Shown: piece after piece, positions 1 to 49,156 of the stretch
Layout of the letters: every line of letters starts with the position of its first letter
Numbering within the stretch: the stretch's first letter is position 1
Assembly: GCA_014905635.1 (NCBI GenBank)
Contig: JABVCE010000018.1
Coordinates: forward strand, 62,001-126,000
Source: Scenedesmus sp. PABB004
Lineage: Eukaryota
Direction: 5' to 3'
Length of the DNA: 64,000 nucleotides
The notes under the pieces: generated by a model
The model's database searches: none
What the model saw: only the letters and a program-made list of their open reading frames with translations
What the model was told of the DNA's origin: nothing
Position numbers and translations under genes: made by a program

Positions 1-3000
1 GCGTCGCTGCTCAGCGACGCGCTGGGCGCGTTTGACGAGTCGTTCCAGCTGCACCTGCGCGGCGGCGGGCCGCCGGTCGCGCTGACCATCCGTGGCCATG
101 TGGTGGGGCCGCAGTTCTCCCTGGACGCCGCGGGGCTCGACTTTGGCGTCATGGCGTTTGGCTTCAGGCGCGGCGCGGCGCGCACGCCTCGGGGCAGCCG
201 CGCGCCGCCTGCCGGGTGTCGCGCGCCGCCCCCGCCGCGCGCCCCCGGCGCGCCGAGCGCCCTGGCGGGCGCCGCCGCCTCGCGCGGCACCGCAGGTACT
301 GCCGCGAGCTCGTGCTGACCAACACAGGCGCCATCCCGCTCGCGTTTGCGTGGCGCCTCGGCGACGAGGCCGGCCCCGGCGCGCGCGGCGACGTCGCCGT
401 GCTGCCGCCGCGCGGCACGGTGCTGCCGCACGCGTTGCAGGCCGTGCGCGTCGAGTTCACGCCGTCGTGCGTGCAGCGCTACGCGCTCGTGCTGGCCATG
501 GACATCCCTGGTGTCGGCGCGGGGGCGGCGGTGCTGCCGCTCACGGGCGAGTGCGCGGTGCCGCTCATCTGCCTGCCGCCCAGCGGGGAGCTGCTGGAGT
601 ATGGGCAGGTCTACGTGCGCCACCGTTACGAGCGCACGTTCACGCTGGTCAACGACAGCAAGCTGCCAGCCAAGTTTGAGGTGCTGCCGCAGGTGAGCCC
701 CCGAGCAGCGCGCCCGGCCGCTCCCACGCGCGCCTGTGCGCGCACGCGCTCGGCCTCGGCCGCGGGCGCGGGCGCCGCCGCACGCACACCCCGCCGCCGC
801 GCCGCCGTGTGCCGCCGCGCCGCGCAGGACCAGCAGAGCCAGGCGCTGGCTGTGTACACGGCGGCCCCCGCGGCGGCGACCATCCCCGCCAAGGGCAGCG
901 TGGCGGTGACGCTGGCGCTGGAGGCGGAGCGGCTGGGCCGGCTGCAGCTGCCCGTGTACGTGCGCGTCGCGGGCAGCCGCAACAAGCCGCTGCAGCTGGT
1001 CGCGGACGCCAGGGCGGTGGGGCCGTCGCTGGAGTTTGCGCTGCCGCCGCCTGCCGCAGCCGCGCCGCAGCAGCAGCAGGAGCAGCCCGACGCGTCGCTG
1101 GCGGGCGCGACCGCGGCGGCCGCGCCGGCGGCGGCGGCGGCGCCCGGCGACGGCTGCACCAGCGGCAGCGTCAGCGCAGGTGAGCCGACGGCGGCGGCAG
1201 CAGGCGCGGCGGATGCCAGCGGCAACGGCGCGGCGCCGCCGGCAGCGGCGGAGAGCGCTGTTGCCTCGGCCGGCAGCGGTGGGCCCGACGGCACGGCCGC
1301 GCTGCTGGCAGAGGAGAGCACCATCAGCCACGCTGCCAGCGTGGCCAGCACCAGCAGCAGAGCCAGGGGCGCTGGCAGGCGCGGGGGCCGGCCCAAGGCC
1401 AGCCGCGCGGGAGGCAAGCCGCCGGGGCCGCCGCCGCTCGAGTGGGCGGCGGGCGCGGCGATCGCGTGGGGCAAGGTCGAGGTGCTGCAGCCGCACGCGC
1501 GCGAGCTGCGGCTGCGCAACCCCACACCCGTCGATGCGCTGGTCAAGCTCTTTGTGGAGGGTCGCGACTCGGTGTTCGAGGTGCGGCCAGCGGACGAGGC
1601 GGCACGTTGTGGCGGGGCGGCGGCGCCGGTGCAGCCGCGCCAGCTCATGCCGCGCGCTGCCGGCGCAGGTGGAGCCGCGCGAGGTGGTGGTGCCGGCGAG
1701 CGGCGAGGCGTCTGTGGTCGTCAGCGTGCTGCTGGACGACACGGCCACGTTCCGGGACGTGCTGCACGCGCTGGTGGCGGAGGGCGCGGACGTCAACATC
1801 CCGCTGGAGGCGACAGGCGAGCGCCGGCGCGCACCGCTGCGGGCAGGGCTCACCAGCAGCGGCAGCTGCGCGGCGCGCTGAGCCCTGGGCTCGGCGTGCT
1901 GCCCGCCGCCGCCGCAGGGATCGGCAGCACGCTGGTGTCGGAGGTGCTGTCCCGCCCCGCGTTGGACTTTGGCGCGCAGTTTGTGGGCCGCCCGTGGCAG
2001 CTCCAGGTGGAGGTGGCCAACCGCGGCCGCAAGGCCGCGGCGCTCACGTGGAGCAACGCCAAGCTTGCGGAGCTGGCCAAGGCGTTCGGCAAGACCGCCA
2101 AGGCGTCGGGTGAGCGCCAGCGGCACACGCGCGCACCGCCGCATCTGGGCCCGCCGCCGTTGACGTCTGGAGCCGAGCAGTCGCGCCCGCCACGCCGCGC
2201 GTGCAGGCAAGAAGGTTGACGTCGCCGAGCTGCCGCCAGAGCAGCAGCCGGTGTTCACTATCACGCCCGACAAGCTGCTGCTGGGGCCAAAGGAGGCGGC
2301 CGCGTTTGTCATCGCCGGCCTCAGCCACAGGCCAGGTGCGGGGCCGTCAGGGGCGCGGCGTGGCGTGGCTGCAGTGGCAGCTGCGGCAGCACCAGCGAGC
2401 GTCGTGCGGCAAACAGTGCGCCTCACCAGCTGGCCGTCGCTGTCATTACGCTGCGCTCACTCCCAGGTGTCATCAGCGAGCAGCTGCAGTGCCAGCACGC
2501 CGCGAGCGGCGCGGCGCCAGCCGGCGCCAGCGCCAAGCCACGGCCCGTGTTCGACGTCGCGCTCAGCGCGGACGTCGCGACGCCGCTGCTGGAGCTGTCG
2601 CAGCGCTCGGTGGAGTTCACGTACGTCCACGCACGGGGCGTGACGCCGCAGCCCATGTCCGAGGCGCTGCAAGCGCGGTGAGCCGCGGCGCGGCGCGCCC
2701 AGCAGGCCGCTCGCTGCCCGCTGCCCGCGGCGCGCATCGCCCCCACGCCCCGCCTGCGCCTCGCAGCAACGTGTCCAAGCTGCCGCTCTCGTTCACGCTC
2801 AAGGCGGCGAGACCGTTCAGCGTCGAGCCAGCAGCGCTGTGCCTCGCGCCGGGCGAGGCCGCGGCGCTGGTCGTGGGCTTTGACCCCGACTTTCGGCGCG
2901 ACCACGCCAGCGCGACGCTGCGGCAGCGCGTCGCGATCGCGTACGCAGACAGCCCGCAGAAGGACTGGCTCGAGGTGTCGGGCGTCATTGAGTTCCCCAA

Positions 3001-6000
3001 CCTCGTGTTTGAGGCCACCGCCGTCGACTTTGGCTGCGTGCTGCTCGACAGCATGCGCCGCGTGAGCGTCGCGGTGTCCAACCCCGGCCGCGTGCCCGCG
3101 GAGTTTTCCTGGAGCTGGGCCTCCAGCGACGCGGGCGCCAGCGGCGCCAGCGGGGGCAGCGGCGGCGGCGCCGAGGGCGACGCGCCCCGCCGGCGCCGCG
3201 CGCGCCGACCGCGCGCAGCCCGCGGCAGCCGGCGCCGAGCCAGCTCTTTGACATCCTGCCCATCGCGGGCGTGCTCGGCCCGGGGCAGCGCGAGGCGTTT
3301 GAGTTTTCGTTCCACGCCTTCCCCGGCGCCAAGGCCAGCGCGGTCGCGGTGTGCGCGGTCGTGGACGGCCCCACGTACCAGGTCCAGCTGTGCGGCGAGT
3401 CCAACAGCATCAAGTTTGACGTCTCGCCGCAGTTCTTCGACTGCGGCCTGCAGCCCTACGACCGCGCCGCCGAGCGCGACCTCACGGTGGTCAACGCCGG
3501 CAAGGTGCCGTTTGACTTTTCGATCGACCTCACCCGCCTCAGCCGCCCCGGCGTGGTGGAGGCGAGCCCGCCCGCGGGCCGCGTGGCGGCGGGCGAGAGG
3601 GCGCGCGTCAAGCTCAAGGTGGGCCGATGGACGGCCGCCGCGCCGCGCGCAGCGGGCGGCGGCCGGCCTGTGCCGGCGCCGCGCTCACGCGTGCGCACGC
3701 GCGTGCCTCCCCCCGTCGCCCGCCGCCGCAGGTCAAGGCGGGCGTGCCGGCGCGGCTGATGGAGCTGGTGCTGGTGTCGGTTGCGCACTTTGAGCCGGTG
3801 CAGGTGCAGGTGGTGGTCGAGGGCACCTACCCAGCGCTCGCCCTCAATCTGCCGCGCATCAAGGACGCCGCCTTTGCCGCGGCGCTCGAGGAGGCGGCGG
3901 CAGGGTGCGGCGCGGCGCGGGGCCGGGGCCGGCGCGGCGCGGGGCCGGGGCTGGCGCGGCCGCGCCCACCGCCTGCCTGGCTGCGCGGGGCTGATGGCAG
4001 GGGGCGTTGACCCCCCTCCCCGCACCCCCGCCGCCGCGGCGCAGCGCGGAGGACCAGGGCCTGGCGGCCACGCTCGCCATCACGCTGGAGCCGGCCACCT
4101 GCGGCCCCGCGCTGGCGGAAGCGGGCAGCTTCCGGGGCGCAAGCCGCCTGGGCAGCGCGGCCGCCGGCGGGCGCGCCAGCCTGGTGGGCGTCCCGCGCGG
4201 CGCCGCCGGGCCGGGCAGTGTCGCGGGGCAGAGCATTGCGAGCGCCGCGCTCACGGTGGGCGGGCGGCCAGGCAGCGGCGCCAAGAGCCACATCAGCGCT
4301 GCCTCGGGCGCCACGGGCAGGAGCCGGGCGAGCGCCGCGACCGCGGCGTCCATGGGGGCGATGCTGGCCAAGGACAAGCTCGCCCAGGTGGGCCGCGGAC
4401 GGCACGCGGGCCAGGCGCTGGACATTGGGCGCAGCGCGCGCCCCGTCGCTGACCGCGCGCGCCGGCCGCCCTGTCGCAGCTTCAAGCCTCGCTGCCGCGC
4501 GAGAAGCAGCTGGAGAATGAGGCCGAGCGCCTGCGCCTGGTGCACCAGCTCCTCGCGCGCGGCGCCGCCGACGCCGCAGCGCCGCTCGGCGCCGCGCCTC
4601 GCCGCGCGAGCGGCCGCAGCAGCGCGTCCAGCGCGCGCGCGTCGCTCGCCGCCCAGGCCCCGCCCGCTGCGACGGCCGAGGGCGAGGCGGTGGCCGCCGC
4701 CGCTGAAGCCGGCGGGAGCGGCGCGGCGGCTGTGGCGGCCGCGGCCTCGGGCGGCGTCCCGCGCCGCGCACCGGTGGCGCCCAAGCTGCCGGCCCTGGTG
4801 TCGGGGCACTACCTGCTCGACTTTGGCAGCGTGGCCAAGGGCGTGAACAAGAGCAGGAAGGTCAAGCTCACCAACATGAGCCCGCAGCTGGTGCGCCGCG
4901 CGCGTAGGGGCACGCGCGCAACGCCGGGACGCGCTGCCCGCGCCCGTGCCGGCCGCACCGGCGGCCCCTCACCGCGCCCCGCCCCGCTCGAATCTAGGTG
5001 TCGCTGGTGGTGGACAAGCAGACGCTGGAGGCGTGGGGCTTTGGCATGGTGCCAGAGGCCGCCGTCAAGCTCGCGGGCGCGCCGGACTGCCAGTCCTGCG
5101 AGGTCACGTTCACAGTGATGGCGGCCAAGGCCTGGGTGCCGGCGGGGCCGCTCGAGCTCACGCTGCCGCTCGCGCCCAAGGGCGGGCCCGCGGTGCTGCT
5201 CACGCTGCGCGCGCTGGTGGTGGTGCCCGAGGTCGTGCCCAGCGAGGCGGAGCTCAGCTTTGGCACGGTCGGCACGGGCCACTGCATGGTGTGCGCGGTG
5301 CTGCAAGTCCGCGCGCCCCGCGTGCCGCCGCCCGCCCGCCGTCCGCCCAGCTCGCCCGCTCCGCCGCCGGCGCCGCGCAGGTGTACACGGTGCAGCTGCA
5401 CAACCCCTGCGAGGTGCCGGCCGAGTGGTGCGTCAAGCGGCCCGCCGTGGACAGCCCCAAGCTGCGCGACTGGGAGTTCTTTGCCGTGGAGCCCGCCGAG
5501 GGCGTGCTGGCGCCGGGCGGGCGCGCCAACGTGCGCGTCACCTTCACGCCCGCGCCGGGTCGGGACACGGCATACGCGCTCGAGCTGCCCGTCCGCGTGG
5601 CCAACAACCCGCGCGCCGTCGAGCTCGCCTGCGCGGGGCGGGGCGCCGCGCCGCGCGTGGAGTTTGCGCCGCGCGCCGTCGACTGCGGGCCCGTGCTGCC
5701 GCGCTTCCCGGGGCAGCGCCCAGCCGAGGCGCTCGTGACGCTCACCAACGTCGGCGAGCGCGCGGTGGAGGTGGTCTGCCTCGACCTGGACCCCCGCCAC
5801 CTGGCGGAGGAGGAGGCGCTGCGCTCGCTCGACATGTGCGTACGCGCGCGCGTGCCGGGCGGGCGCGGGCTTGGGCGGCTGAGCCGCGCGCGCTCACCCC
5901 GCGCCGCCGCTGCCGTGCCGCGCAGCTACAACGAGGCCGGGGTCGCGCTGCTGCGCCCGCTGGCGCCCGGAGAGCCGACCTGGCCGGAGCTGCTGGAGCA

Positions 6001-9000
6001 GGCGGCGCAGCGCAAGCGGGTGGAGGACGACGCGGCATCCGTGGCGCAGGCGGCAATTGCGGCGGCGCAGCAGGTGCGACGCTGCGGCAGGCCCCTGATA
6101 ACATCAGCGCGCGTGGCTCCCGGGATGGGGGTGCTGAGTCTGTCGCCGCTGCGCGCAGGCCCTGGCCGCCGCACAGGCTGGAGTGGCGCGCGCCGCGCAG
6201 CCTGACGGCGTCCGGGGCCCCGAGCCAGCAGCGGCAGCAGCTGCAGGAGCAGCCGCAGCGACGCAGCAGGAGGAGGGCGTGGGCGAGCTGGTGGTCGATG
6301 CCGGCGCCACGGCAGCGGGCGCGGCGGAGCTGCCGCCGCGACGCTTTGTGGCGCTCCTGCACGGCGCGCCGCTAGCGGACACCACGGCCCAGGCGGCGCT
6401 GCTCTGCAGCCGGTACAACGTGCCCTGCGCGACGCTGGACGGCCTGCTGCAGGTGGTTGGCCCTGCAGCGGCGGCGCGGCGCCACCCGCCGGACGCACCT
6501 GGCTTGCTCACGCGGCGCGCGCGCTGCCCCGCATCTGCAGGAGGCCGCCGCGCTGGCGGCGGCAGACCATGCCACGGTCGGCGGCGACGGCGCCAGCCCT
6601 GCAGCGTCGCCAGCGGACGAGGAGCTGCAGGATCATCTGGACAGGCTGCTGGCGGGGGAGACGCAGCTGGCCGCGGCGGCCAAGGCGGGCGTCGCGGGCA
6701 TGGCGCAGAGGCCGGCAGGTCTGCTCTCCGTGGCCGAGGCACACGGTGTGGCTGTGAAGGCGCTCAAGCTCGCGCTCGCGCAGCAGCAGTATGAGGGGGG
6801 CCTGGTGCTGGAGGGCCTCGCCAGCCGGCACCTGCCGCACGCGGCCCTGGCTGCGCGGTGCCTGCTGCAGGCGCTGGGCCTGCGCAACAGGGGGCTGGAG
6901 CCCCCGCCGGAGCCGGCGGCCGACGCGCCCGCGCCCAGCGCGCGCGCCTCGGCCGGTGGCGCGGCGCCAGGCGGCAGGGCGGCCAGGCCGCCCGGCACGC
7001 CGCCAGGGCACAAGGGCTCCTCCCGGCCCGGCACCGCCAGCCGTGGCGCCAAGGCGCTGGCGCCCGTGCCAGAGATGCCGCCGCCCGTGCTGGACCTGAG
7101 CAAGCCGGACGTCTGGGAGGGCGCGCAGCAGGTGGGCCGCCCGCGGCGGCACGCGGCGCGCTGCCCGCTGTGCGCGCGCGGCACGCACGACGCGTCCCTG
7201 CGTGCGCGCGCGCGCTGCGCCCGCCCCTGCAGGTGTTTGCAGTGGAGCTGCGGCTGGGCAAGGACGAGGCGGCGCGGCGCTGGGCGGCCGGCGTGGCCGC
7301 GAGTGCGGCCGGGCTCGAGGCGCCCGGCATCATCGACCGAGCGGGCTCACAGCAGGTGGTGGAGGCCAGCTCCCTGGACGACGAGCAGCAGCAGGCACTG
7401 GAGCAGGTGCCGGCTGCACCAGCCGCGCGGCTGGAAGACGCCGGCTTTGAATCGAGCTGGGCGGCGTTTGAGCAGGCGGCCGCCGCGCTGGGCTTGGTGC
7501 TCGGACGGCTGCCCGCTGGCAAGCCCATCAGCCACAGAGCGGTGAGCGGCAGGCCAAGAGTTTCTGGCGCAACCCTCGGTCGCCTGCCAGGAGCGCGGCC
7601 GCGCCTGGCCACACGTCCCTCACCACCGCCCGCCGGCCGGCCGGCGCGCCCGCAGGTTGCGGCCAAGTCAGCAGACCAGGAGCAGCTCGCACGGCAGGTG
7701 GTGGGCATCAGCTTTGAGTGCGGCGCCGTGGCGAGCGTGCTGCCGGCGGTGCCCGCGGACGCGCTGCTGGTGCCGCCGCCGTACGAGCTGCGGCTGCTGT
7801 CGCAGCCGCCGCGGCCCGCCAGGCGGCCGCCGCTGACCCACTTCAAGGTCTGGACGCTGCCGCTGCCCGAGGCGACCCCGCCCGACGGCGGTGCCGCTGC
7901 CACGCCGCCGCCCGCCGAGTCGCCGGCGGCGGGGCAGGAGGCGGCCGGCAGCCGGCCCCTCTCGTCGGCGTCGGGCCAGGGCAAGGCGGTGCCCGCCGAC
8001 GCGGGCGCCACCAGCCCGCGCGTCGGTAAGCCCGCCCCGCGCGGCAAGGCGGCCGCAGCGGTGGCACCGCCGCCGCCCCCGACCGTGGAGGAGGAGGCCG
8101 CCAAGTGAGGCCGGCGCTGCGCTCCCGGCGGCCGCGAGCAGCCGCGCCGCCGCCGCGCGCTGACGGCCAGCCGCGCCGCCGCCGCGCGCTGACGGCCAGC
8201 CGCGCCGCCGCCGCCGCCGGCGCCGCTGTCGCGCAGGCGCGGCCTGCTCGAGGGCGGGCGCTGGGTCATCCCGCCCCGCGGCGTCGTCACGCTGCTGGTG
8301 CAGTTTGCCAGCGACGCGGTGGGGCGGTTCAGCGAGGTCCTGACCTTTGACGTGCTCTGCGGCGAGCGCCACCACAAGGTCGCGCTCACGGGCGCCTGCG
8401 ACTACCCGCGCATCGCCACCAACGCCAGGTGCGGGCCGCCTAACCCCTGGCCCCCAGGGCGGCAGGGTTTGCAGAGATGGGGCGGGCCCGGGCGGCGGCG
8501 CGCGCGCGTGGAGCATGCTGCGCCGCAGCCGCGCCGCTTGGCCTGAGCCCGCCGCCGCCGCCGCGCGCCCGCCCCGGCGCGGCAGGAACATGTACTACAA
8601 GCTCGCCAAGGCGCGGCCGGCGACGCCGTCTGTGCGGCAGCAGTTCGTGGTGCCGAGCGGCACGTTTGAGTTCGGACCCGTGCTCGCGGGGCGCAACCGC
8701 GCCGTCGGCGGAGCCGCCGCGCACGTCGGCGGGCACGCCGAGCACACGGCGCGCTTCCGCATCACCAACAGCGGCCTCTTCCCGCTGCACGCCGACTTCT
8801 GGCTCAAGTCGGAGGGCCCAGGCGCCGACCCGGCCGCGGGGGCGGGCCTCGCTGGCGGGGAGGCGAGGAAGCGCGCCCCGGGTGCGCGCGCGGCGCGCAC
8901 CGCGCCGCCGGCCGTCAGGACCCTCGCGCGCGACTGCGCGCCGGCCCCGCCAACCGTTGCTTGCGCCCTGCGCGCGCCCCGCAGCCGCCGCGCCCGGGGA

Positions 9001-12000
9001 CAAGCGGCCCGGGGGCCGGGCCGGCGGCGCGCCGACGTTCCTGCTGCAGCCGCCGTGCATGGACCTGGGCATCGACGAGACCCAGGACCTCACCGTGTAC
9101 GCCTTCCCGGGTGCCGAGGGCACGTTTGAGGACGCCGTTATGTGCAGGTGCGCGGCATTGTTGGGCCTGCGGGACGGCGTCCTGGTCAGCGCACCCCAGC
9201 TGCGCGAGCGCGTGCGCCGCTCGTCGACCCCCGAGCGGCCCGCCGCCCGGCCGCGTCGCGCCACCAGGCTGCGCGACAACCCCACGCCGCTGGAGTTCCC
9301 CATCAGCGTCATCGGCGCGCGGCCGGCGGTGGTGGTCAAGCTCGACGCGCCGCCCGCCGCGGCGCCGGCCGGCGCCGACAAGCAGCGCCGCGTCTCGGAC
9401 GCGGGCGCGGCCAAGGGCGGCGCCGGCACCCGGACGAGCCTCAAGGCCGGCGGCAAGGCGGCGCCGGAGCTGACGATCCAGTTTGACCGCCTCCTGCTGC
9501 GCAAGCGCGATGCGCAGTGCTTCACGCTCGGCAACACGAGCGTGCTGCCGCTCAAGTGGCGGCTCGCGGGCGTGGACACGCTGCCGCCCGAGTTCACCGT
9601 CACGCCCCACGCCGGCGAGCTGCCCGCGCGCAGCGACGTGCGCGTGTGCGTGGCGTTCGCCGCCATCAAGAAGGCCGACCTCTCGGAGCTCGTCACGCTC
9701 GAGGTGCGGGCTGGCCGGTGCGAGCACACGGAGGGAGCAGGGGGCTGGCTGCCAGGGCCCTGGCGAGAGCCGGCCGCCGCAGCACGCGGGGCGGCGCCGT
9801 GTCCATGGCCGCCCGCGCCGCGCAGGTGCTGGACGTGGGCGAGGCGCTGGGCGTGCTGCGCGCGCTGCCGATCGCCATCCGCGGCGAGGCGCACGACCTG
9901 CACGTCGACGTGCGCTTCCCCGGCGAGGCGGGGCTCGCGGGCGTGGACTTTGGCACGCTGCGCGTGCGCGACGCCGCAACGCGCACGCTTGTGCTGCGCA
10001 ACACCGAAAAGTACGAGGCGCGGTTCGAGTTTGCGGTGCGCAGCGAGCGCGTCGCGCAGCTGGTGGCCATCGCGCCGACCGCGGGCGTGCTGCCGCCGGG
10101 CAAGGACGTGCCCGTCACGGTGAGCCGTGCGGCGGCGATGGGGCGGCGGCGGGCCGGCAGGCTCTGCACGCGCACACGCCCGCGCACGCGCCCGCGCCGG
10201 CGCCGCGCGCCCGGGCTCTGCTCACGCCCCCGCCTCGCCTAACCGCCGCCGCCGCCACCGCCGCAGCTGAGCTGGAACAAGGACCTCACGCTGCGCAGCG
10301 AGGTCTCCTTTGCGGGCAACACCGACATCGTGCTCTCACTCATCGAGCCCAGCACCGACGCGCGCGAGCAGAGCGTGGCGCTCAAGCTCAGCGCGGCCGC
10401 GCAGTTCAGCCGCTACTCGGTCACGCCCGCGCGCGGCCTGCACTTTGGGCCCGCGACCTGCGGCACACTCGCCAAGCCGCGCGTCTTTGAGGTGGTCAAC
10501 CACGGCGCCTTCCCCTTCAGCCTGCGCCTCTTTGACATGGCCTCCGGAGGCGCGGACAGGGCCGTCGCCGCGGACGACGCTGCGGCCAGGGCGGCAGCGG
10601 CCGCGGGCGCCGGCAAAGCAGGTGCGGCGCGGCGCGGCGCGGGGGCTGGCTGCGCGGCGCGGCGCACCCGCAGCAGCGCGCCCCGGCGGCAGACCCCGCC
10701 GCCGCGCGCCCGCAGGGCGCAAGCCCGCGCCGGCGCTGCCCGCGCCGCCGCCGGCGCCGCCGTCGGCGGCGCCGCCCAGCGCGCTGCAGCTCGGCCAGTT
10801 TGTGCTGGAGCCCGCGGAGGCGGTCGTCGCGCCCGGCTGCCAGCAGGAGGTCGCGGTGGTCTTCCGCGCCGAGGGCAACGCCGTGTGGAGCGCGGTCGCG
10901 GGGCTGGACATCAGCGACCGCGACGCCGCGGACCACCCGGGCGGCATTCCCTACGAGCTCGGCGGGGAGAGCTGCATCCCGGGTGCGCCCCCGCGCGTCA
11001 CGCGCGGCGCGCCGCGCGCGGTGGGCTGCGGTGCGCTCGCGCTCAGCCCCCTGCCCCCGCGCCGCGCGCGCCGCGCCCCAGGCATCGACGCGGCCAACGT
11101 GGGCTCGATCTTTGAGGAGCACACCGTCGTGGCGCAGCTGGACCCTTTCAAGCCCCTGGCCTGCAGCTTTGGCCTGCGCGAGCGCGTGTTCAACTTTGGC
11201 ACCGTCGTCGCGCAGCTTGCCGAGGCCGCGGACGCCGGCCAGGCGGCGAGCGGCGGCGGCGGCGGCGCCGCCGCCGCCAAGGCCGGCGCGGCGGCCGCCA
11301 AGGCGGGCGGCGCCCCCCGCGGCGCGGCGGCGCGCGTGAGCATCACCGCGGCGGCGCGCCCCGGGTCGGCGGGCGGCGCGGGCGCCCCGCCCGGCGGCGG
11401 CGGCGCGCTGCAGCCTCAGGGCAGCCTGCTGGACGAGCCCGGCGCGGTGCGGGCCAACCTGAAGTTCATCAACCCCTTCAAGGTCCCCTGCACCCTGGCC
11501 TTTAGCATCAAGCCGCGCGGCGGCGCCGCGCCGGGTGTGTGTGCGTGTGTTTGTGCGCGCCGCGCCGCTGACCGCGCAGGCCGCGCGCGCGCGCGCGCGC
11601 CGCCGCGCCGACGCCGCGCGCCGCGCGCCGCGCCGCGGCGCCGCCAGGCGTGCGGTTCCCCATGGAGGTGTCGCCCGCGAGCATCGTCATCCCGCCCCAC
11701 GAGTACCGCCACGTTGCGCTCGCGTTCTGCCCCCGCGCAATCCAGCAGTACAGCGCCACCTTTGAGGCCGCCGTCGCCGGCGGCACCGACCCCGCGACCG
11801 GGGCCTTCACCTGCGAGCTGCGCGGCGAGGGCACGCTGCCGAGCCTGAGCTTCCAGGAGCCCGCCGCCGTGGACGGCGCGGGCCGGCCGTGGCTCAAGTT
11901 TGGGCGCCTGCTGGCGGGGCGGTCGGCGCGCGCGCTGCTGAACGTGCGCAACAACGGCCACCTCCCGGCGTCGGCACGGCTGGAGATGGAGCCGCACCCT

Positions 12001-15000
12001 GCGTTCGCGCTGCTGGAGGGCACGCAGGCGCGGCGCCGGGCGCGGCGCGCGGCGCTAGCAACGACCGCTGTGACGCGCGCGCCGCAGCGCTCACAGCAGC
12101 GCGGCGCGGCGCGGCGTAAACCTCGGCCCTCGCCGCCACGCGCGCGCCTCGCCCGCCTGCTGCTCGCCGCACGCTGCAGGTGTTCTCGGTGGAGAGCAAG
12201 AAGGCGGCGAGTTTCACGGTCGAGTTTGCGCCGCCCGAGCTGGGCGCGTACGCGCACGAGCTCGCGCTGCGGGTCAAGGGCAACCCCTTTGAGCAGTACC
12301 GCGTGGCAATCACGGGTGCGCGGCGCGTGGCCGGCCCGCGGCGCGGCCGGCCCAGCTCGCGCGCGGCGGCATGGCGCGCAGCCACCGACCCGGCTCGCCC
12401 GCGGCCGCGCTTGTGCCGGGTTCAGGCGAGTGCTACCAGGAGGACGTGACCTTTGCGGGGCTGCCGGACGGCGCGCTCGCCACGCTCGCGCTGCCAGACG
12501 TGTGCCTGCCGCCCGCCGCGGCGCTCGCGCGCGCGGGCAGCACGCGGGCGGGCGGCACGCGGCCGTCCGTGAGCGGCGCCGCACAGCCGGACGGGGCGGC
12601 GGCCGCGGCGGCGCCGCCGCCGTGCACCAGCAGCTTCACCTTCGCCCTGGTCAACAACAGCGCGACGCGGCACTTCCGCTTCAAGTGGCCGGAGCACCCG
12701 CAGCTGCGCTTCACGCCGTGCGTGGGCCACCTCCACGCGGGCGCGTCCAAGGCCGTCACGGTGGTGTTTGCCGCGTCGGCGCCGGTGAAGCTGGACGGGC
12801 AGGACGTCAAGATGGCGGTCAGCCAGATCGCCTACAAGGCAGGCCTGCGCGCCGGCTGGCCCGCCGCGTCGCGCCGCCGCGCCGCGCGCGGCTGCCGCCG
12901 ACCCGCCCTCCCCGCCCGCCCGCCGCCAGGGCGACCCGGTGGACTGGGACGACGTGCTGGCCGTGGGCATGGCCGCCGCCGGCGCGCGCGTCTCGAGCGC
13001 GACGCGCGTCGCGCCTGGCCTGCCCGGCTTGGGGCCCAAGGTCGGCTCTGAGCCGCTCGTCGACCTGCTTCCCCGCACGCAGCGCGACATCATGCTCAAG
13101 GTGCGGCGCGCGGGGCCGCCGCCGCGCGCGCCGCGCCGCGGCAAGCACAGCACGCTGCCGACGTGCGCGGCTGCCGCCGCTGCTCCTGCACCCCGCGCGC
13201 GCGCCGCCAGGTGTTTGCGGCCGCCGACAGCCCGCGCTTTGAGTGCAGCGCGCCGTCGCCTGCGATCGTGTTCCGGCCGACGATGATGCTGCAGGCGCGC
13301 GCGTTTGGCTTCAGGCTCACCAACTCCGCGCTCACGGCGCTGGAGTTCGACTGGCGCGTGCTCGACCGCGACGGCGCCGAAGACGCGTCGGGTGCGCCGG
13401 GCGCGCGCGGCGCAGCGCGTGCGGGTGGCTCCGCGCGCGCAACCCTCCTGCCCCCTCCCCTCCCACACACACACACAGGGCTGTACGTTGTGGCCCCGGC
13501 GGCGGGCACGCTGGCGGGCGGGAGCGAGCAGACGTTCACGCTGCGCTTCAGCCCGACCGAGGTGGAGGACGTCACGCGCACGCTCGTCTGCCGCATGCCC
13601 CTGCTGGAGCGCCTCGCGGCGATGCCTGCGGCGCCCGGCGGCGCCGCGACGGAGGCGCTGCAGCCGCTCACGCGCGAAGTCACGGGCAAGGTGCGCGCGC
13701 GCTGGCGGCCTCTGCGCTGCGACGCCCGCTGGCCGCCGCCCTGCGCGCGACACTCTCACTCGGCGAGCCTGCACGCGGCGGGCGCCGCCGCCGCGCAGGT
13801 GCTGCGGCCGTGGTGCCACTTTGAGCTGCTGGAGAGCGACTACGTCGCCGGCGGGCGGCGCAACCCGGAGCAGCCGGGGCCGTCGGGCGTGGTGGAGCCG
13901 CTGGACCCGGCCACCAAGGTCCGCGCCCCGCGCCCCGCATGCCTCGCGCCCCGCGCCCCGCGCGCCCCCTGCCGCACGGCCCCGCCAGCCTGGCCAGGCC
14001 GCACCCGGCCGACGCGGCTGACGCCGCCGCGCCGCGCGGCGCCAGGTGCTGGAGTTTGACTCGCTCGGCGTCCGCGTGCGCAACGGCCGGGCGTTCCGCT
14101 TGCTCAACCCCACCAGCATCACCTACGACTTTGTGTGGGCGCCCGTGCTGCCGCCCGCCGTCGCGGCGCTGGGCGGGCCGCCGCCGCCGAGCCCGTTTGC
14201 CTGCGCCACGCGCAAAGGCACCATCGCTGGCGGCAGGTGGGCGCCGCGCGCGGCGCGGCCGCCACGCGGGGTCGCGCCGCCGCCGCGCCTCGCTCTGCCC
14301 CGCTCACCGCCCCGCCTGTGTCACGCGCGCCGCGTGCGCAGGCGGTACGAGATGGCGTTTGAGTTCACGCCCAGCAGCGACGCGCTGGTGGAGTCGTTCT
14401 GGACGTTCAGCATCCCCAGCCAGGGCGTGCGGCTGCCCTTCCTGCTGGTCGGCCGCGTCACGGAGCCGCGCGTCAGCCTCGACCGCCCCGCCATCAACTT
14501 TGGACAGGCGCGGCCCCGCCAGCCTCGCGGTCGCGCTGGCCTGCCGCGCCGGGCTGGGCTAGGCAGCGGGGCTTGCTCTGACACTGCGCGCTGCTGCGTG
14601 CCCCGGCCCCCCCAGGTCCAGCTGGGCGTGCGCGGCAAGATCTGCCTTTCGCTGGTGAACGACGAGCACCTTCCCTTTTCCTTCGCGCTGGACAAGGCCA
14701 GCTACGACGCCAGCGACGCGCTGCTCGCCGCGTCGGGCGGGCGGCCGTTGCTGGACATCCAGCCGGCCAGCGGCATCGTACCGCCCAACTCCAAGGTGCG
14801 GGCGGCGGCGACGCCGGCGACGTCGCGCCGCTGGCTATGAGCGCCAGACAGCCGGCGCCGGCGCGGCCCCGCCGCCTGCCTGAACTCACCGGCCCTCACC
14901 CCCCACCCCATCTACACAGGTGGAGCTGGTGGCGGTCTTTGCACCGCAGGCGGAGCGGGCGATCAACTACGGCGTGATCGTGCGCGTGCGCAACAAGCCC

Positions 15001-18000
15001 ACGCCGCTCGTGCTCAACGTCAAGGGCGAGGGCTACGCGCTGCAGCCGAGCCTCATGCTGGAGCTGCCCGACGACGGCGCGCTCGAGCTCTCGCCGGCGG
15101 GCGTCAACACGGTCGACTTTGGCCAGGCGCGGCCGCGGCGGCTTTGGCCACGGCGGCCACGCATGCGCGCGGCAGCCCACAGCTGCCGAGCGCCCGCCCG
15201 CCTCCGCGCCTGGCGTGCGCGCGCAGGTGGTGATCAACGACCGCGTCGTGCGCAGCCTGTCGCTGGTCAACGCCGGCGCCGTCAACTTTGACTTCACCTG
15301 GGACACGGGCGCCCACCCGTCCCTCTCCATCGCGCCGCGCGCGGGCAGCGTCCCCAAGGGCGAGCGCCGGCTGGTGGAGCTGTCGTTCGCGCCCACCAGC
15401 GCCGAGCGGCTCGCGGCCTGCCCCGTGACCTGCCAGGTTCGGCGCAGGCTGCTGGCGTTGCCGGGCGGGGCAGGCGCCGCGCCCGCCGGCGCGCAAGCGC
15501 TCACCCGCCGCCGCCGCGTCTGCCTCCCTCCCCCCTGCCGCCGCGGCCAGATCACCAACGGCCCGCGCTACCAGCTCGCGCTGAGCGGCTGCGGCTACAA
15601 GCCCAAGCTGGCCTTCAGCTTCCTGGCGCACGACTTTGGCCCCCGGCACGTGTGGCAGCAGGGCATGGCGCCGGCGCGCGCGGCGCTGAGCGTGACCAAC
15701 CAGGACGCGCAGGAGGTGGCGCTGGACGTGCTGTTTGACAGCACCGACAACTGGCAGGCGCGCGGCGCTGCGCAGCGCCGCGTGGTGCATCGCGGCGCGG
15801 TGGCGCTGGGGCGCGCGCCCCCCGCGCGCCGTCGCCGCCATCCCACGCCGCCTTGCCCCGCGCCGCGCCCAGGTCGTGGCGAGCCCCTGCGTGCTGGCGC
15901 CGGGGCGGAGCGTCGAGGTGCCCATCGCGTTCCGGCCGACCGCAGCGCAGCCCTACGCAGCGGTGGTGCCGCTGCGGGTCAACGGGCTGTATAACATCAA
16001 CATCAACCTCGCGGGTGTGTGGGCCAGGGTCTGGTGTGCGGGCGCACGCACGTGCTGCAGCCGGCGCGCCCGCCTCGCCCCGCCGCCGTGCCGCGCGCCG
16101 CCCAGCCCGCGCCGCCGCTCCGCCGCTGCAGGCGAGGGGGTGCCGCTGCGCGTCGAGCTCGCGCGCCCCGACCAGCTGCAGCGCGGCGTCGCGTTTGGCG
16201 CAGTGCCGTGCAGCGGCAGCTGCAGCCGCACGCTCTCGCTGGCCAACCACGGCCGTGCCGGCGCGTGCGTGAGCTTCGCCCCCAGCGCGGAGCTGTTTGA
16301 GCGCCTGGGCATCGAGGTGCTGCCAGCGGGCGGCCTGGCTCTGCGGCCCCGCGAGGTGGCGGACGTGGCGCTCTGGTACAGGTATGCCGATCCTGAGCCC
16401 CGGCTCCTGAGCCCCGGCCCAGCTCGGCTCATGAGCTGAGCTGGGCTGGGCTGAGTGCGGCCCTCGGGCCAGCGCGGCGCGGCTGCACCCCTCCCCCCTC
16501 TCTCTGACCAGCACTCCCGCCCGCGCACAGGCCCAAGCAGCGCGCGCGGCAGTTCAAGGAGCCGCTGCGCGTGCTGGTAGACGGCGTGCCCCAGGTCCTC
16601 ACGACCGTCAGCGGCGCGTGCACGGGGGCGTCGCTGCTGCTGGCCAGCGACAGCGTGCCGTTTGGGGTCGTGGTGCTGGGCAGCCGCACGACCAAGCGCC
16701 TGCAGCTGAGCAACGCGGGCGACCTGGGATGCAGGTTTGCGTGGGACGCCAAGCTGCTGGCCACGCACTTCAGCATCAGCCCAGCAGGTGGGTGTCGGTG
16801 CTGACGCTGCGCTGGCGCCGGCGGGGGCGGCAGCGCGGCGGCAGCGTGGCCGCGAGCGGCGCGCGGACGCGCTCCGTCCGCGCAGCGCGGCCCACCCGCC
16901 GCGCCGCCGCTGCAGAGGGCTTCCTTGCGCCGGGGCAGGACGTGAAGCTGGAGGTCAGCTTCCACCCGGCGAGCGTCGACCCGGACATCCGAGTGGAGCG
17001 GCTGCACTGCAAGCTCGCTACCTCAGCAGCCGCGCTGCCGGAGCCTGCCGCAGGCGGCGGCGCGCGCGTGGGGGCGGAGCTGACGCTGCCGATTGGCGGC
17101 GGCGCGGTGCCAGACCTGCTCCTCACGCTGACGGGCGCGTGCGTGCAGAGCGAGGCGGCGGGCGAGCCGGTGCAGTTCCGCTGCAACGTCCGCACCAGCG
17201 CGCGCGCTGTCATCACGCTGCGCAACCCCAGCAGCACGAGCTGGCAGCTGCGGCCGGTCATCACCAACGAGTTCTGGTCGGGCGCCGAGATCCTGCAGGT
17301 GCGGCCCCGGCGTCGACCCTGCCACGTGGCAGCCGGCCGTGACTGGCGCTGCGCTGCAAGCCGCCGCCGCCGCCGCTCCAACCGCCGCCGCCGAAACCTC
17401 TGCCCCCGCCGCCCGCCGCGTGCAGGTGCCGGCCGGCGGTGCGGCCGAGTACGAGCTGACGTACCGCCCGCTGACCATGACGCCGCGCGAGGGCCCGCCG
17501 CACGAGGGCAGCGTGTTCTTCCCCATACCCGACGGCACGGGCCTGCTGCACCTCCTGCACGGCCAGGTCGGGCCGCGGCGGGGAGCGCGCGCCGCAGCGC
17601 GTGCGGCGGCGCGGCGCGCCGCTGAGCGTGCTCCCGCCCTGCGCCGCGCGGCGCGACGCGCGCAGTCGGACCAGCCCGCGCCCGAGACGGTCCAGGAGGT
17701 GACGCTGCCGGCCAAGACGCAGCACTGCACCCAGCTGCGCGTCAACAACTGGCTGCACAAGCCGCAGCGCTTCAAGTGCGTCGGCCGCGTCCGCCGATGG
17801 GCGCCGCGCCCGGCCGCGCGCGCGCCCAACATGGCCTGGCCCCCGCCCGACCCGCGAGCGCCGCCGCTGCCGCCGCGCCGCGCCCTGTCCCCCGCGCCAG
17901 GGTGACCAAGGAGCTGCTCGCGGGCGAGCCCAGCACCCGGCTGGAGGGCCCCGCCGCCATCGACGTGCCCGCGCTCTCCGACCGCCAGTACCGCCTGGCC

Positions 18001-19400
18001 GTCTTCAGCTACTGCCAGGCACGCGCGCGCGCGCGCGGCCGGCAGCGGCTGGCTGGCTGCAGGCGGCGCGGCGCGGCACGGGAGGGGCCGCCGCGCCGCG
18101 CGCGCTGCTGCGTCCCGCGCCGCCGCCACGGCCGCTGCGGCCGCTGCGGCCGCGTGCCGAGCCGCGCCGTGCCGCGCGTGCGTGTCGCAGGGCGTGTCGC
18201 GCGTGCGGGTCACGTTCCGGAACGAGGTCAGCGGGGAGTACACGTTCCACGACCTTACCCTCACCAGCACGCCGCCCGAGCCGCGCGGGACGCTCGCGCT
18301 CGAGTGCCCCTGCTTCACGCAGACCAGCGCCAGCGTGTCCATCACCAACCTGCTCGCCGTGCCCGTCACGCTGAGGCTGAGCAGCGCCAGCAGCAAGCAG
18401 GTGCGCGCCCGCCGGGCGGCGGCGGCAGGCGCGGCCCCGCGCGCGGCCGCGCGCAGCACCTCGCTGAGCTCTGCACCGCGCTGCCGCTGCCGCCGCCGCG
18501 CGGCACAGGTGAGCGTGGTGCCCGAGGCGCCGGTGCTGGCACCAGGCAGCACCACGGCGCTCGAGGTGCGCTTCCGGCCGGTGCTGGTGGGCAGCAGCGA
18601 GGGCGCGCTGCGCCTGGAGTGCCCCGAGCTGGGCGTGTACGAGTGGCGCCTGCGGCTCACGGGCACACCGACCAACCCGGAGCGCAGCCTCGGGTTCAGC
18701 GTGCCGCTCGGGAGCCGCGACACCCAGGCGCGCGCGCGCGCGCGCGCACGCGTGCCCAAGCGCCGCGCGCCGGCAGCCGCCGCGCACGGCTGGCTGCCCG
18801 GGGGCCGACCGGCGCGCGGCCCGCGGCGCGCAGGTGCTGCGCTTCACGCACTGGCTGCCCGAGCGGGTCAACTACCGGGCCAGCTTCCGCAGCGGCGGCG
18901 ACAGCGCCTCGGGCGGCGTCGCGCTCAGCGGCAGCGGTTTTGACGCGCCCGCCACCGTGTCGGCGCCGCCGGCGGGCCCGCGCGGCGTCGAGGTGGAGGT
19001 GGTGGTGGGCTTTGAGCCGTCGGCGGTGGGCGAGGCCTTCCGGGACACCCTGGTGCTCAGCGCGCCGACGGCCGGGCCCTACGCGGTGCCGCTGATGGGC
19101 CAGTGCGTGCCGCCCAAGCCGCAGGGCCCCGTGGACGTCAGCAAGGCGCGGCGCGGCGCGCGCAGCGCGGCAGCGCAGCCACCGCCGCGGCCCACGCGCC
19201 CGCCGCCGCGCCTCGCTGACGTCGCGCCCCGCCGCCGCGCAGGGCTCCGCGTCGGTGCCCTTCCGCAACGTCTTTGCGGTGGAGGCTGAGTTTGCGTTTG
19301 CCGTGGACAACCCCGCCTTTGTGCTCGCCCGGCCCAGCGAGCGCCTCGCCGCCAAGCGCCCGCACGCGATCAGCGTGGCGTTCAAGCCCGAGCCCACCAA

Positions 19401-19432
<32 letters not shown>

Positions 19433-19512
19433 CGGCCAGCCGCACCGGCAAGCTCACGGTGACGTGCGCGAAGCACACCGCCGCGCAGTGGGTGTACTAC
19501 CTGCAGGCGTGA
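1..19512 (+). CDS. HYDIN: Hydin (hydrocephalus-inducing protein, axonemal central-pair component); 5'-truncated, ~50 exons in window
   Basis: Spliced reading gives many ASH/Ig-like repeats (LDFGxV, LxNxG, FxVxPxxGxL), a degenerate adenylate-kinase-like segment (LLHGAPLADTTAQAALLCSRYNVP) and the Hydin-type C-terminus (GSASVPFRNVF...WVYYLQA*, stop 19510-19512). About 49 introns traced by eye. One unresolved frame break near 3130-3245. Confidence 0.93.
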
Positions 19513-20634
19513 GCGCTCGTGGCGCTGGCCAGGCGCTGGCGGCGGCGGGTCTGGCCTGGCGCGGCGCGGCGGCCTGGCGGCTGCAGCGATCGAGCGTGAG
19601 GATGTGGGTTGATGGATTTAACCCCAGCACCTTCGCATGCCGGAGAGGCAGCCCGCAGCCCGCATAATGATACTGGGACGACCCGTTAGCAGACCGACAC
19701 ACACACTCGCACACCCGCTCGGCCCCCGACAGAGCAGCAAGAGAGAAGGAAGGAATGCCCTGCCAGTCCCCGGCGTCGCAGGGGCAAACGGCGCGGGGCG
19801 CCGTGGGGGGCGTGCGCAGCTGGGTTCAGTCAGCTGGCACGCCCCCTCCCTGCTCCCCCAGCTGCCAGCTGCTCAGAAGCTGCAAAAAAAGAAGGCATGA
19901 AGGCATGAATCAGACTGCCGTCGGTTCGCGACTGACCCCCTCTCCCTGGCAGTGTAGTGTACGTGGGCGGCTGGGCGCGTGCCCGGCCCCCACAAACCAG
20001 GTAAGACCAAAAACGGTGCACGCCGCAGCCGTGCGCGAGCCCCTGCACACGGGGCTGCAGCGCGGCGGCAGCGCGGCAGGCAGCGCGTGCGACCACGCGG
20101 CGCGATGACACACAACTCGGGGCACACGCACGGACGAGGTCTATTCGGGCGCGTCAAGTGCAAAGCCGGGCCGGCGAGCGAGGCGGCCCTGCTGGACCAC
20201 TGGTCCGGATGCTGCTCAGCGCTCCATTCTCACGATGCATAGTATGGCAAGTGCGTGTGCAGCGCCAGGTCAACGGTGCGCGGATGTGCAGCTCAGCTCA
20301 GGGTCCTGCAGGCGCAGTCCTGCTGTTGAAACGGATCAACGCACGCCGGCAGTCACAAGTGAGCGCGCCGCCCTGCCGCAGCCGCGGCGCGGCGGCCCGC
20401 CGAGCACGCAAGCCAGCAGCAGTGCTTTTGGCGCAGCAGCAAGCAGCTCGGTAAACTCGGCCCAGCCAGTGCTCAGCTTTTGCCCAACTGCTCGCCCCGC
20501 GTGCGCGGGGCGGCTGGGGCCAGACCAGCATTGCTGCGGTGGGGCTGGGCCCACCTTTCTTGGCTGACAACAATCGCCGCCATCGCGTAGCAGCCAGCAG
20601 TGACGGCCTTGGCAGCAGCAAGGGCACATGTACA

Positions 20635-33345: not shown

Positions 33346-35458
33346 ATGCAGCAGCAGCGCCTCGCGCGCTGCGGCGGGCCCAGCGCCCGGCCGGGCCTGG
33401 CCGCGCGACAACGCCGTCCCCTGGCGCCCGCGCCGTCGCCCGGCCCGCTGCGGGCGGGCGGCGGCGCCGGCGCGCGCGTCGCGGCGCCGGAGCGGCAGGC
33501 GCAGCCCGCGGCGGCGGGCCCCGGTTTCACGCCGAGCAAGGTCGCCATCTTCGTGGAGCCCAGCCCGTTCAGCCACATCAGCGGCATGAAGAACCGCTTC
33601 GAGAGCCTCATCAAGAACCTGCGCGAGGCGGGGGACGAGGTCATGGTCGTCACGCCCGACCGCACGCCGCCAAAGGAGTTTTGCGGCGCGCGCGTCGTCA
33701 ACGTGCTCGGCTTCAAGCTCCCCTTCTACAAGTCCGCCACGCTCCTGCTCTCGCTCGGCCTCTCCGCGCGCGTGCTCTTCTACCTGCTGCGCCAGCGGCC
33801 GCAGGTCATCCACGTGTCGACGCCGGGCGTGATGTGCTTTGCCGCCGTGCTCTACGCGCGCCTGCTCGCGGTGCCGCTCGTCATGAGCTACCACACACAC
33901 ATCCCCGAGTACATCCCGCGGTGAGGGCGCCGCGCGGGCACGGGGCTTTTTTGGGGGGGGGGGTGCGCGGGTGCGGGCGCGCGGGCGGGCGCGCGCACGG
34001 GTGCGGCCGCTCTGACCGCCGCGCTGACCGCCGCGCTGACTGCCGCGCCGACCGCGCGCGCGCAGCTACACGTGGCGCGGGCTGGTCGCGCCGATGTGGA
34101 GCATCATCCGCTGGTGCACGCGCCGCGCCGACCTCACGCTCGTCACGAGCAAAGCGATGAAGGCGCGCCGCCGCCGCGCAGCGCGCACGCGGCGCACGGC
34201 ACGCAGCACGGCACGCCGCGCGGCATCCGCCACCACGCGCAGTCCGTCGCATGGCACGCAGCGCGCCGCACGCCGCTCACCCCGCGCCGCCGCGCTGGCG
34301 CCGCCACCGCAGGACGAGCTTACGCGCAACAAGTGCCGCGCGCGGTCGATCGAGGTGTGGCAGCGCGGCGTGGACACGGACGTGTTCAACCCGCGGCACA
34401 AGTGCGCGGCGATGCGCGCGCGCATGACCGACGGCCACCCCGAGGCGCCGCTGCTCGTCTACGTCGGCCGCCTCGGCGCGGAGAAGAACACCGAGGCGCT
34501 CAAGGACATCCTGCTGCAGGCGCGCCGCACACGCGCTGCATGCGCGCGCGCCAGCCTCCCCGACCCGCGGCGCGCTGCGCTGGCGGCGCCGCCGGCGCCC
34601 AGCGCCAGCGCCGCGCTCGCGCGCCTGACGCGCCCGCCTGACGCGCCCGCCCGCGCACGCGCAGGTGCCCGGCGCGCGGCTCGCGCTCGTCGGCGACGGC
34701 CCGCAGCGCGCCGAGCTGGAGCGCATGTTCAAAGGCATGCCAGTCAAGTTCATGGTGCGCCCCCGCCCCCCCCCCCCCCCCCGCGCGCGCCTCGCTGCGC
34801 CGGCCCTGCCTGCCTCTTCCCCGCAGCCTGGCTGCACCCCTGCGCTGCGCCCACGCCCACGCGCCGCCGCCGCCTCTTCTCCTCCCCCTCTCGTCCTCTC
34901 CTTCCCTCCTCCCTCTCCCGCCGCCGCGTGCAGGGCATGATGTCGGGCGAGGCGCTGAGCCAGGCGTACGCGAGCGCCGACGTGTTTGTCATGCCGAGCG
35001 AGACCGAGACGCTCGGCTTTGTGGTGCTCGAGGCGATGGCCTCGGGCGTGCCCGTCGTCGCCGTCGCGGCGGGGGGCCTGACCGACATCCTCACCCAGCC
35101 CGGCACGACCGGCCTGCTCTACGCGCCCGGCGACTACGCGGCCGCGGCGGCGCACGTGCGCGCGCTGCTGGCCGACCCGGGCGCCGCGGCGCGCATCGCG
35201 GCCGCGGGGCGGCGCGAGGTCGAGCTCTTCGGCTGGTCCTCCGCGACGCGCGTGCTGCGCGAGAAGCAGTACGCGCGCGCGGTGCGGCTGAGCGTCGGCA
35301 AGCGGCGCTTCTGGGTGCTCGCGCTGCGCATCGGGCTCGCGCGGCTCGGGCGCGCGCTGCTGGGGCTCGTCGCGGCGGCGTGGCAGGCGGTCGTGGCGGC
35401 GCTCGACTACGCGCGGCCGTTCCGCCCGTCGCCGCCGCCGCCCGCCGCGGCGGTGTAG
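33346..35458 (+). CDS. SQD2: Sulfoquinovosyltransferase / sulfolipid synthase SQD2 (GT4)
   Basis: VAIFVEPSPFSHISGMKNRF, SYHTHIPEYIPRY, WQRGVDTDVFNP, YVGRLGAEKN, YASADVFVMPSETETLGFVVLEAMASG. Confidence 0.92.
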
Positions 35459-47900: not shown

Positions 47901-49156
47901 ACCACCAGCGTCGCGTCCGCCACCACCAGCTCGATCACGTTCTCATGCGGCCCCAGCGCGCCGAGCAGCTCCTGCAGGCTCGCGCCCACGCCGCCCGCCT
48001 CCGCGCCCGCCAGCCCGAGCCGGCTCACGCGGACGCCGCCGGGCGCGGCGGGCGCGGCGAAACCTGCGCCGCCGCCGCCGCCGCCGCGCGCCGCCACGCG
48101 GGTGAGGCCGCCGTAGGCGCCGCGTAGCTGCGCCTCCAGGCGCCGGATGCGCTCGTCGCGGCCGTCCAGCTCGCGCCGCAGCCGCGCGAGCTGCTGCGCG
48201 GCCTCGGCGCGCGCCGCGGCGGCCGCGGCCTGCGCCTCCTCCAGCGCCGCCTTGGCCTCCAGGCTGATGGCCGCCTCGGTGTCCAGCAGCCGGCGCGCCT
48301 GGGGCGGCGGCGGCGGGCGGCGTGGTGGCACCGCGGTCGGCCGCAGCCGACCGCTGGGCGGCCGCGCGCGCGAGATCCCCTGCGGCCCGGGGCCCCGCGC
48401 CCCGCGCGCCGAGCCCCCCGCGCGCCTTGTCCAGCTCGCCCGCCTCCAGCGCCATCGCCTGCCGCAGCTGCGCCAGCTCCGCGCGCAGCTCGCCCTCGCT
48501 CTTGCCCTCGTCCGGCGCGAGGCTGCGCGCGACCGCGCCGCAGCCGCCGCCGAGCGCCGCGCCGCCGGGCCCGCCGCCCACGCCGCCGGCCGCCGCCGCG
48601 GCTGCATCGGCGCGGCGATACACCTCCAGCTTGTCCAGCGCCGCGCGCAGCTCGAGCTCGCCCGCGACGAGCTTGAGCCGCGCGTCGGCGAGCTCGCGCT
48701 CCAGGCGGCGGTGCTCCTCTGGCGACACGCCCGCGAGCTGCGGCGCGCGGCGCCGGGCTCGGCCCCGCGCAGCCGCGCGCGCCGCGTGCTGGCACTGCTA
48801 GCGGCGGCGCGGCGGCGGTGCGCGGCCGCGCGGCCCGCGCGCCCACCTGGCGCTTTATCGACGCGATCTCGCGCCGCAGCTCCGCCTCGCGCGCCTCGCC
48901 CACCGCGCGCTCGCGCCGCGCCGCCAGCAGCTCCTCGCGCAGCACACGCATCTGGGGCAGCGCGCGGTGCGGCGCGGTGGGCGCCGGGGCCCGCCCGGCC
49001 GGCGCCTGGGGCGCGCGCCGCGCGCCTGCGCCTGCGCCTGCGGCCGCCGCCGATGCTATGCGCACCTCTGCGAGCGCGCCACCCGGCGCGGCAAAGGCCT
49101 TGCCCTGAAGCTCCAGGTAGTCACGCTCAAGCTTCAGGCGCTCAGCGCTGAACGCA

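Follow-up and report, generated by a model that had tools for sequence, protein, structure and literature searches.

Why do so many introns in one stretch of the Scenedesmus sp. PABB004 genome appear to begin with GC rather than GT? The stretch, hereafter the window, spans 64 kilobases (kb) of contig JABVCE010000018.1 and carries most of a Hydin gene together with the genes for PRP6, SQD2 and an RPGRIP1-like protein. Its guanine-plus-cytosine (G+C) content is 75-82% per 2 kb over the whole 64 kb, within a genome reported as 39.8 Mb and 78.5% G+C, most relatives, the listed Tetradesmus obliquus assemblies included, being at ~57% (PMC12571836). Among the 57 introns of the window that homology resolves, 42 are GT-AG and 15 (26%) are GC-AG, which suggests that about every fourth or fifth intron of the window belongs to the GC-AG class. 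The original prediction of a share far above the usual level is thus borne out, at 15/57 against 1-2%. We consider it probable that these are ordinary U2-type introns with C at +2, produced by drift towards G+C and tolerated only where the donor has strong flanks. The evidence consists of homology and sequence statistics inside this one window and a few genes; junctions are homology-inferred and splicing is predicted.

GC-AG introns of the Hydin gene

The largest set of introns comes from the Hydin gene:

1..19512, + strand: Hydin gene, 3' four fifths, ~50 introns; the window opens within an exon

Using tblastn, 25-29 segments could be chained onto residues ~548-4775 of full-length homologues, the nearest of which are from Pedinophyceae sp. 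YPF-701 and Chlorokybus atmophyticus; one other query (P0002) gave hundreds of low-complexity matches and was discarded. We aligned six full-length homologues to region 1-19,800 with a purpose-written protein-to-DNA spliced aligner that weights GT and GC donors alike. The spliced alignments stop at 19506-19509 for four of the six homologues and at 19662 and 19760 for the remaining two, and a TGA follows immediately after 19509. For an Ala/Gly/Ser-rich low-complexity stretch (1038-1442, + strand), none of the six homologues has a counterpart; in the ab initio parse, 1180-1311 becomes a GT intron and the remainder of the stretch is coding. The ten GC-AG introns are listed below, with a slash at the exon-intron boundary and lengths in nucleotides (nt):

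168..295, + strand: GC-AG intron, 128 nt, phase 2, cag/GCGCGG; 6/6 homologues
1817..1917, + strand: GC-AG intron, 101 nt, phase 1, cag/GCGAGC; 6/6 homologues
12028..12179, + strand: GC-AG intron with moderate support, 152 nt, phase 0, cag/GCGCGG; 3/6 homologues
12839..12929, + strand: GC-AG intron, the weakest Hydin case, 91 nt, phase 0, aag/GCAGGC; 1/6 homologues
14508..14615, + strand: GC-AG intron, 108 nt, phase 0, cag/GCGCGG; 6/6 homologues
15127..15226, + strand: GC-AG intron, 100 nt, phase 0, cag/GCGCGG; 6/6 homologues
15758..15872, + strand: GC-AG intron, 115 nt, phase 0, cag/GCGCGC; 5/6 homologues
18019..18190, + strand: GC-AG intron, 172 nt, phase 0, cag/GCACGC; 5/6 homologues
18728..18833, + strand: GC-AG intron, 106 nt, phase 0, cag/GCGCGC; 6/6 homologues
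19146..19242, + strand: GC-AG intron, 97 nt, phase 0, aag/GCGCGG; 5/6 homologues

Besides these, 23 GT donors are backed by at least four of the six homologues. The alignments run gapless over all eight strong GC junctions, and when GC donors are disallowed the local score drops at every one of them in 6/6 homologues, by 11-74 BLOSUM62 points. The cost is highest at 14508 (57-74 points) and amounts to 18-36 at 168 (GT-only substitute at donor 156), 18-49 at 15127, 20-30 at 15758, 26-34 at 18019 (donor 18001) and 23-50 at 18728. At 1817 there is no in-phase GT inside 12 codons, and reading through runs into a stop codon. The narrowest margin among the eight belongs to 19146, where the nearest GT (19137, nine bases upstream) removes three residues and costs 11-24 points. 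Summed over the gene, the alignment score under GT donors only is ~500-700 points lower. At 12028 the supporting homologues include the closest one (P0005), and at 12839, in a poorly conserved stretch, a GD.V.WDD motif of one homologue (P0039) runs on over the junction; the ab initio parse agrees with both.

The reading frame adds a separate argument. Nine of the ten Hydin GC introns have lengths that are not divisible by 3, so some sequence must be removed at these places. The intron at 14508 is divisible by 3 and stop-free, and here it is homology, not the frame alone, that forces removal. An ab initio parse of Hydin proposed 56 introns, recovering all 33 confirmed ones and adding seven GC calls, of which 10550 and 11303 are rated possible. 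The other five (2968, 4555, 6938, 7872 and 19507) are doubtful, as they lack the AG, lack G at +5 or lie past the stop. The Hydin tally is therefore roughly 10-12 of ~50 introns, and the original count of ~10 of ~49 was a reasonable one.

Junctions in other genes and controls on the donor

Two exon translations elsewhere in the window are 100% identical to the STA1 (PRP6 orthologue) and SQD2 proteins of Scenedesmus sp. PABB004. Their GC-AG introns are as follows:

41538..41697, - strand: PRP6 GC-AG intron, 160 nt, phase 0, aag/GCACGC; 8/8 homologues and deposited model
40656..40793, - strand: PRP6 GC-AG intron, 138 nt, phase 0, aag/GCGCGG; 8/8 homologues and deposited model
39375..39509, - strand: PRP6 GC-AG intron, 135 nt, phase 0, aag/GCGCGC; 8/8 homologues and deposited model
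34163..34312, + strand: SQD2 GC-AG intron, 150 nt, phase 0, aag/GCGCGC; 9/9 homologues and deposited model
34520..34664, + strand: SQD2 GC-AG intron, 145 nt, phase 0, cag/GCGCGC; 9/9 homologues and deposited model

For PRP6, eight independent homologues, including transcript-derived proteins ~90% identical, concur on 15 introns, three of them GC-AG; the alignments are gapless across the GC junctions, near-identical in their flanks, and lose 257-287 points under GT donors only. Nine homologues likewise concur on four introns in SQD2, two of them GC-AG, with near-identical, gapless flanking alignments across both GC junctions and a loss of 206-261 points. Transcript-derived proteins of relatives are contiguous over the junctions, an indirect indication that the introns are removed. 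The original prediction held that standard gene finders would mis-model such genes; in that form it finds no support here, as the five GC-AG introns of PRP6 and SQD2 are all present in the deposited models (P0162, P0282) and are thus public, even if undiscussed. Gene prediction in genomes of this kind must allow for GC donors, and both deposited models that we checked contain them.

Several further observations concern these two genes. The deposited SQD2 model (P0282, 1056 amino acids; 31942-37548, + strand) fuses SQD2 with upstream sequence and with a thioredoxin-like gene downstream of it. The sequence at the donor 35453 of this model is GTG TAG, which includes an in-frame stop, and the homologues of SQD2 stop at 35425-35452. 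The fusion therefore appears to be an annotation artefact, made for a reason other than the GC-AG introns; a 720-amino-acid predicted model of another species (P0297) contains the same SQD2-thioredoxin join. At 33544-33918 (+ strand), open reading frames (ORFs) of relatives that read through into introns hold an intron-like insertion between EFCGAKV and VVNVLGF. As the SQD2 exon of the window is continuous there, an intron appears to have been lost in this compact genome. One PRP6 intron (42399-43105, - strand) is 707 nt long, the other 56 confirmed introns having a median of ~120 nt, and has no Rfam match. At 39693-41044 (- strand), the genomic ORF of a relative (82% identical) is unbroken across five PRP6 intron sites, including the GC-AG one at 40793, and then, where the window has its donor 39800, enters an intron whose first codon is one for Val. 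Close relatives thus differ in which introns they have.

Two further sites lie in the RPGRIP1-like gene:

47468..47578, - strand: probable GC-AG intron, 111 nt, phase 0, cag/GCGCGG; Pfam profile split
48299..48425, - strand: candidate GC-AG intron, 127 nt, aag/GCGCGC; ab initio only

Positions 33-80 of the Pfam C2-C2_1 profile end at the donor 47578 and positions 81-109 begin at its acceptor, the match of the downstream exon being weak by itself (E=0.17). The intron has a pyrimidine fraction of 0.88 ahead of its AG and is in frame and stop-free; it is probably a GC-AG intron, and retention would be compatible with the frame. For 48425, the dinucleotide-blind ab initio scan described below (score 27.2) is the one line of support. 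The 17 sites originally proposed as intron starts have thus fared unequally: spliced alignment confirms 15 and the Pfam split points to 47578, while 48425 stays an ab initio candidate.

Could the GC donors be artefacts? Junctions might be misplaced, the supposed introns might be coding insertions that are never spliced out, or the assembly might have C in error for T. All 17 sites do read AG/GC on the coding strand, as had been claimed, and the five minus-strand positions first given approximately are exact within 1 nt. AG/GC is, however, frequent by chance, so the motif alone is no proof: AGGC occurs 411 times on the + strand, about twice as often as AGGT (193), and all frames are open over hundreds of codons. 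Permitting GC donors in the alignment also yields 162 distinct GC calls, just 22 of them after AG, and many are spurious and come from one homologue. Moreover, control runs that allow GT together with CG, GG or CC donors regain most of the score lost under GT only, so homology alone cannot fix the donor dinucleotide. We therefore did not rely on the summed alignment score to decide between GC and other dinucleotides and used flank and phase tests instead. The CG, GG and CC donors mark the same junctions but sit 1-6 codons away, and only 0-1 of 5-7 are preceded by AG, compared with 8/8 for GC.

We also derived a donor matrix solely from the 23 GT donors of Hydin that homology supports, leaving +1 and +2 out of it. 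This matrix ranks all ten Hydin GC sites first of 17 in-phase candidates, and every one reads GC; in leave-one-out runs, 19 of the 23 GT sites reach rank 1. A dinucleotide-blind scan of both strands at a strict cut-off called 29 GT, 15 GC and 5 other donors. By inspection, the last are mostly GT sites displaced by a few codons within the frame (+3 to +9 nt), and the window holds only two donor classes, GT and GC. Frame-shifted versions of the scan are not a clean null, since real introns are found again with displaced donors. Junction shifts that yield an identical mRNA would require CA-GG or AC-GC ends. From 5 to 9 independent homologues reproduce, in gapless alignments, eight of the sites in Hydin, all three in PRP6 and both in SQD2. 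The frame demands removal at 11 of the 17 sites, and errors would not pick sites preceded by AG. The artefact explanation is largely refuted by these results, and we regard it as extremely improbable.

Donor pattern and its explanation

The GC-AG introns are spread over three of the four genes resolved by homology, with 10/33 in Hydin, 3/15 in PRP6, 2/4 in SQD2 and 0/5 in the thioredoxin-like gene. Outside the homology set, the scan found 0/5 in a proteasome subunit gene, and inspection by eye found 0/3 in a glutathione peroxidase gene. What sets the GC donors apart is their context. Exonic AG at -2,-1 precedes 15/15 GC donors and 23/42 GT donors (Fisher p=0.001); put the other way, none of the 19 donors that lack exonic AG is GC. 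All but one of the 57 donors, among them all 15 GC donors, have G at +5 (56/57). Phase 0 accounts for 13/15 GC and 23/42 GT donors (p=0.03), the phase-0 GC donors following Gln or Lys codons that end in AG, and AG is retained at only 3/8 phase-1 donors. The two classes are alike in composition and in length (medians of 128 nt for GC and 119.5 nt for GT, p=0.6), and their consensus sequences correspond, GTGCGC/GTGCGG in the GT class and GCGCGG/GCGCGC in the GC class. The U12-type donor motif is RTATCCTT-like; all 15 GC donor hexamers are GCGCGG, GCGCGC, GCACGC, GCGAGC or GCAGGC, and none is a U12-type donor. Intron interiors are 85% G+C with C/(C+T)=0.84, and +2 is C in 26% of donors, a difference which indicates that T at +2 is still under selection. 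The analysis itself thus shows where the junctions lie, how often GC donors occur in the window, how these donors are biased in flank and phase, and how GC-biased the intron interiors are.

We propose that strong drift towards G+C, through mutation bias or biased gene conversion, keeps converting T to C. At +2 the change would weaken pairing with the U1 small nuclear RNA (snRNA) 5' end by a single base pair, and may be tolerated only in a donor that is otherwise at full strength, with A at -2 and G at -1 of the exon and G at +5 of the intron; elsewhere selection would retain T. The phase bias could have the same source. Drift of this kind would strip A from codon third positions, and in phase 1 the -2 base is a third position, so that phase-1 donors, having often lost their A, could not afford C, and GC donors would accumulate in phase 0. 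Pairing with U1 is established in 5' splice-site recognition, and we infer its role here, together with the direction of the change and the typicality of the window for the genome. Within the window, the reading of GC pressure with compensation in the flanks is well supported, the compensation by the exon that had been suggested is supported by the contrast in AG (15/15 vs 23/42), and GC pressure is a plausible driver given interiors at 85% G+C.

The direction of change was read from database proteins that are ORFs running through introns in genomic contigs of relatives, where the codon after the exon end displays the first bases of the intron. At the orthologue of SQD2 34163, seven ORFs extend past the end of the exon; in six of them the next codon is one for Val (GTN), in the seventh one for Ala (GCN). 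At that of 34520, one ORF (from the organism of P0292) has Val (GTN). These codons fit GT as the older state at the SQD2 donors. A metagenome scan with the PRP6 model returned two distant loci of 39-43% identity, unusable for orthologous introns.

An altered splicing machinery, with a U1 variant that pairs with C at +2 or a changed U1C, would make GC as good a donor as GT. The high share (15/57) agrees with this, as does the predicted poor pairing of the GTGCGC/GTGCGG consensus with canonical U1 at +4 and +6. Full acceptance, however, would have brought C at +2 close to the neutral 84% rather than to 26%, and should be independent of exonic AG, on which the GC donors depend without exception (0/19 lacking it). 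Such conditional use is, besides, known from GC-AG introns under unmodified spliceosomes. We therefore think this explanation unlikely. A narrower form, in which a second type of U1 snRNA or a changed U1C is adapted to C at +2 and the need for AG reflects the pairing register of the variant, strikes us as very unlikely; an adapted U1 is itself unlikely given the conditional pattern. An Rfam scan of the 64-kb window matched 0 families.

GC donors might instead be selected as weak sites for regulated retention or alternative splicing. In other organisms they are reported to be enriched in alternatively spliced genes (PMC2490688), and in Emiliania huxleyi they are described as accompanying high intron retention (PMC4028052). 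Here, 6/17 GC introns keep the frame and contain no stop, but a composition of 85% G+C would by itself leave many introns free of stops. Nor are the GC introns confined to Hydin: they lie also in the housekeeping genes PRP6 and SQD2, and they match GT introns in length and composition. Selection for regulated splicing is accordingly a distinctly unlikely cause.

Against drift with compensation in strong flanks stand several points. The matrix and the scan were trained on introns of the same window. Both RPGRIP1-like sites are weakly supported, as are 12028 and 12839 in Hydin, and at the six in-frame, stop-free GC introns retention is invisible in the reading frame. The genes that have no GC introns lower the share, and the genome-wide figure could be well below 26%. 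The comparison with orthologues covers two introns only, by codon reading in read-through ORFs of relatives. Finally, the canonical U1 snRNA 5' end is ACUUACCUG, and C at +4, which is found in 40 of the 57 donors, mismatches it. Simple U1 pairing therefore explains donor strength less neatly, and donor recognition may lean on G at +5 and on the exon more than in model organisms.

Other genes, significance and known systems

Elsewhere in the window, Pfam matches comprise an RPGRIP1-type C2 domain at 47.5 kb and, in other places, a proteasome ATPase and a glutathione peroxidase. At 61225-62521 (- strand), poly-glutamine runs of ~18-20 Q each lie in two exons of one gene, which has weak matches to the RSE1/DDB1/CPSF1 beta-propeller.

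On the evidence of this window, the rule that very GC-rich genomes have many GC-AG introns seems to extend to an intron-dense green alga with a G+C content (78.5%) among the highest nuclear values reported, the published cases being haptophytes and pelagophytes. In a literature search over titles and a few passages, no GC-AG share was found for PABB004 or for any green alga. The novelty implied at the outset was nevertheless overstated, as comparable or higher GC-AG shares have been published for other GC-rich algae. The dependence on AG and phase provides a clean natural example of how two parts of a 5' splice site compensate for each other while base composition is pushed in one direction, and with genome-wide junctions the pattern could yield an estimate of the strength of selection on T at +2.

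How do these introns compare with those known elsewhere? They resemble ordinary U2-type GC-AG introns, which are spliced by the major spliceosome, in having GC at +1,+2, AG at the 3' end and a reinforced donor (PMC7072748). They differ from the introns of plants, animals and fungi in frequency: GT-AG introns are reported at 97.9-98.7% there (PMC7072748), and with a total of ~1-2% for introns other than GT-AG, the GC-AG share here is more than tenfold higher. Across kingdoms, splice-site G+C is described as correlating weakly and positively with genomic G+C (PMC7072748).

The Emiliania huxleyi genome has ~65% G+C, and this haptophyte and the pelagophytes are the systems closest in kind. Among pelagophytes, GC-AG shares of 14-17% in Aureococcus anophagefferens and ~14% in Pelagomonas calceolata are reported, compared with 0.32% in the lower-GC Aureoumbra, and the authors ascribe the share to G+C content (bioRxiv 10.1101/2024.10.30.620910). 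The window is similar to these in GC-AG share and high G+C. Pelagophytes are, however, stramenopiles with 0.1-0.9 introns per gene, whereas four fifths of Hydin alone hold ~50 introns here; their figures are genome-wide and curated with RNA-seq, ours homology-based and from one window. In Emiliania huxleyi, GC donors are reported at 56% of 241 curated junctions and at ~60/40 overall, a preference that the authors tie to base composition; they also report that predictors set up for GT donors place its junctions wrongly (PMC4028052). The likeness lies in a GC-rich alga with GC-AG introns as a major class and an acceptor that stays AG. The differences are that GC donors are the majority there at lower G+C, and ~20-26% here at 78% G+C, and that the class appears here in the unrelated Chlorophyceae and is strictly conditional on exonic AG.

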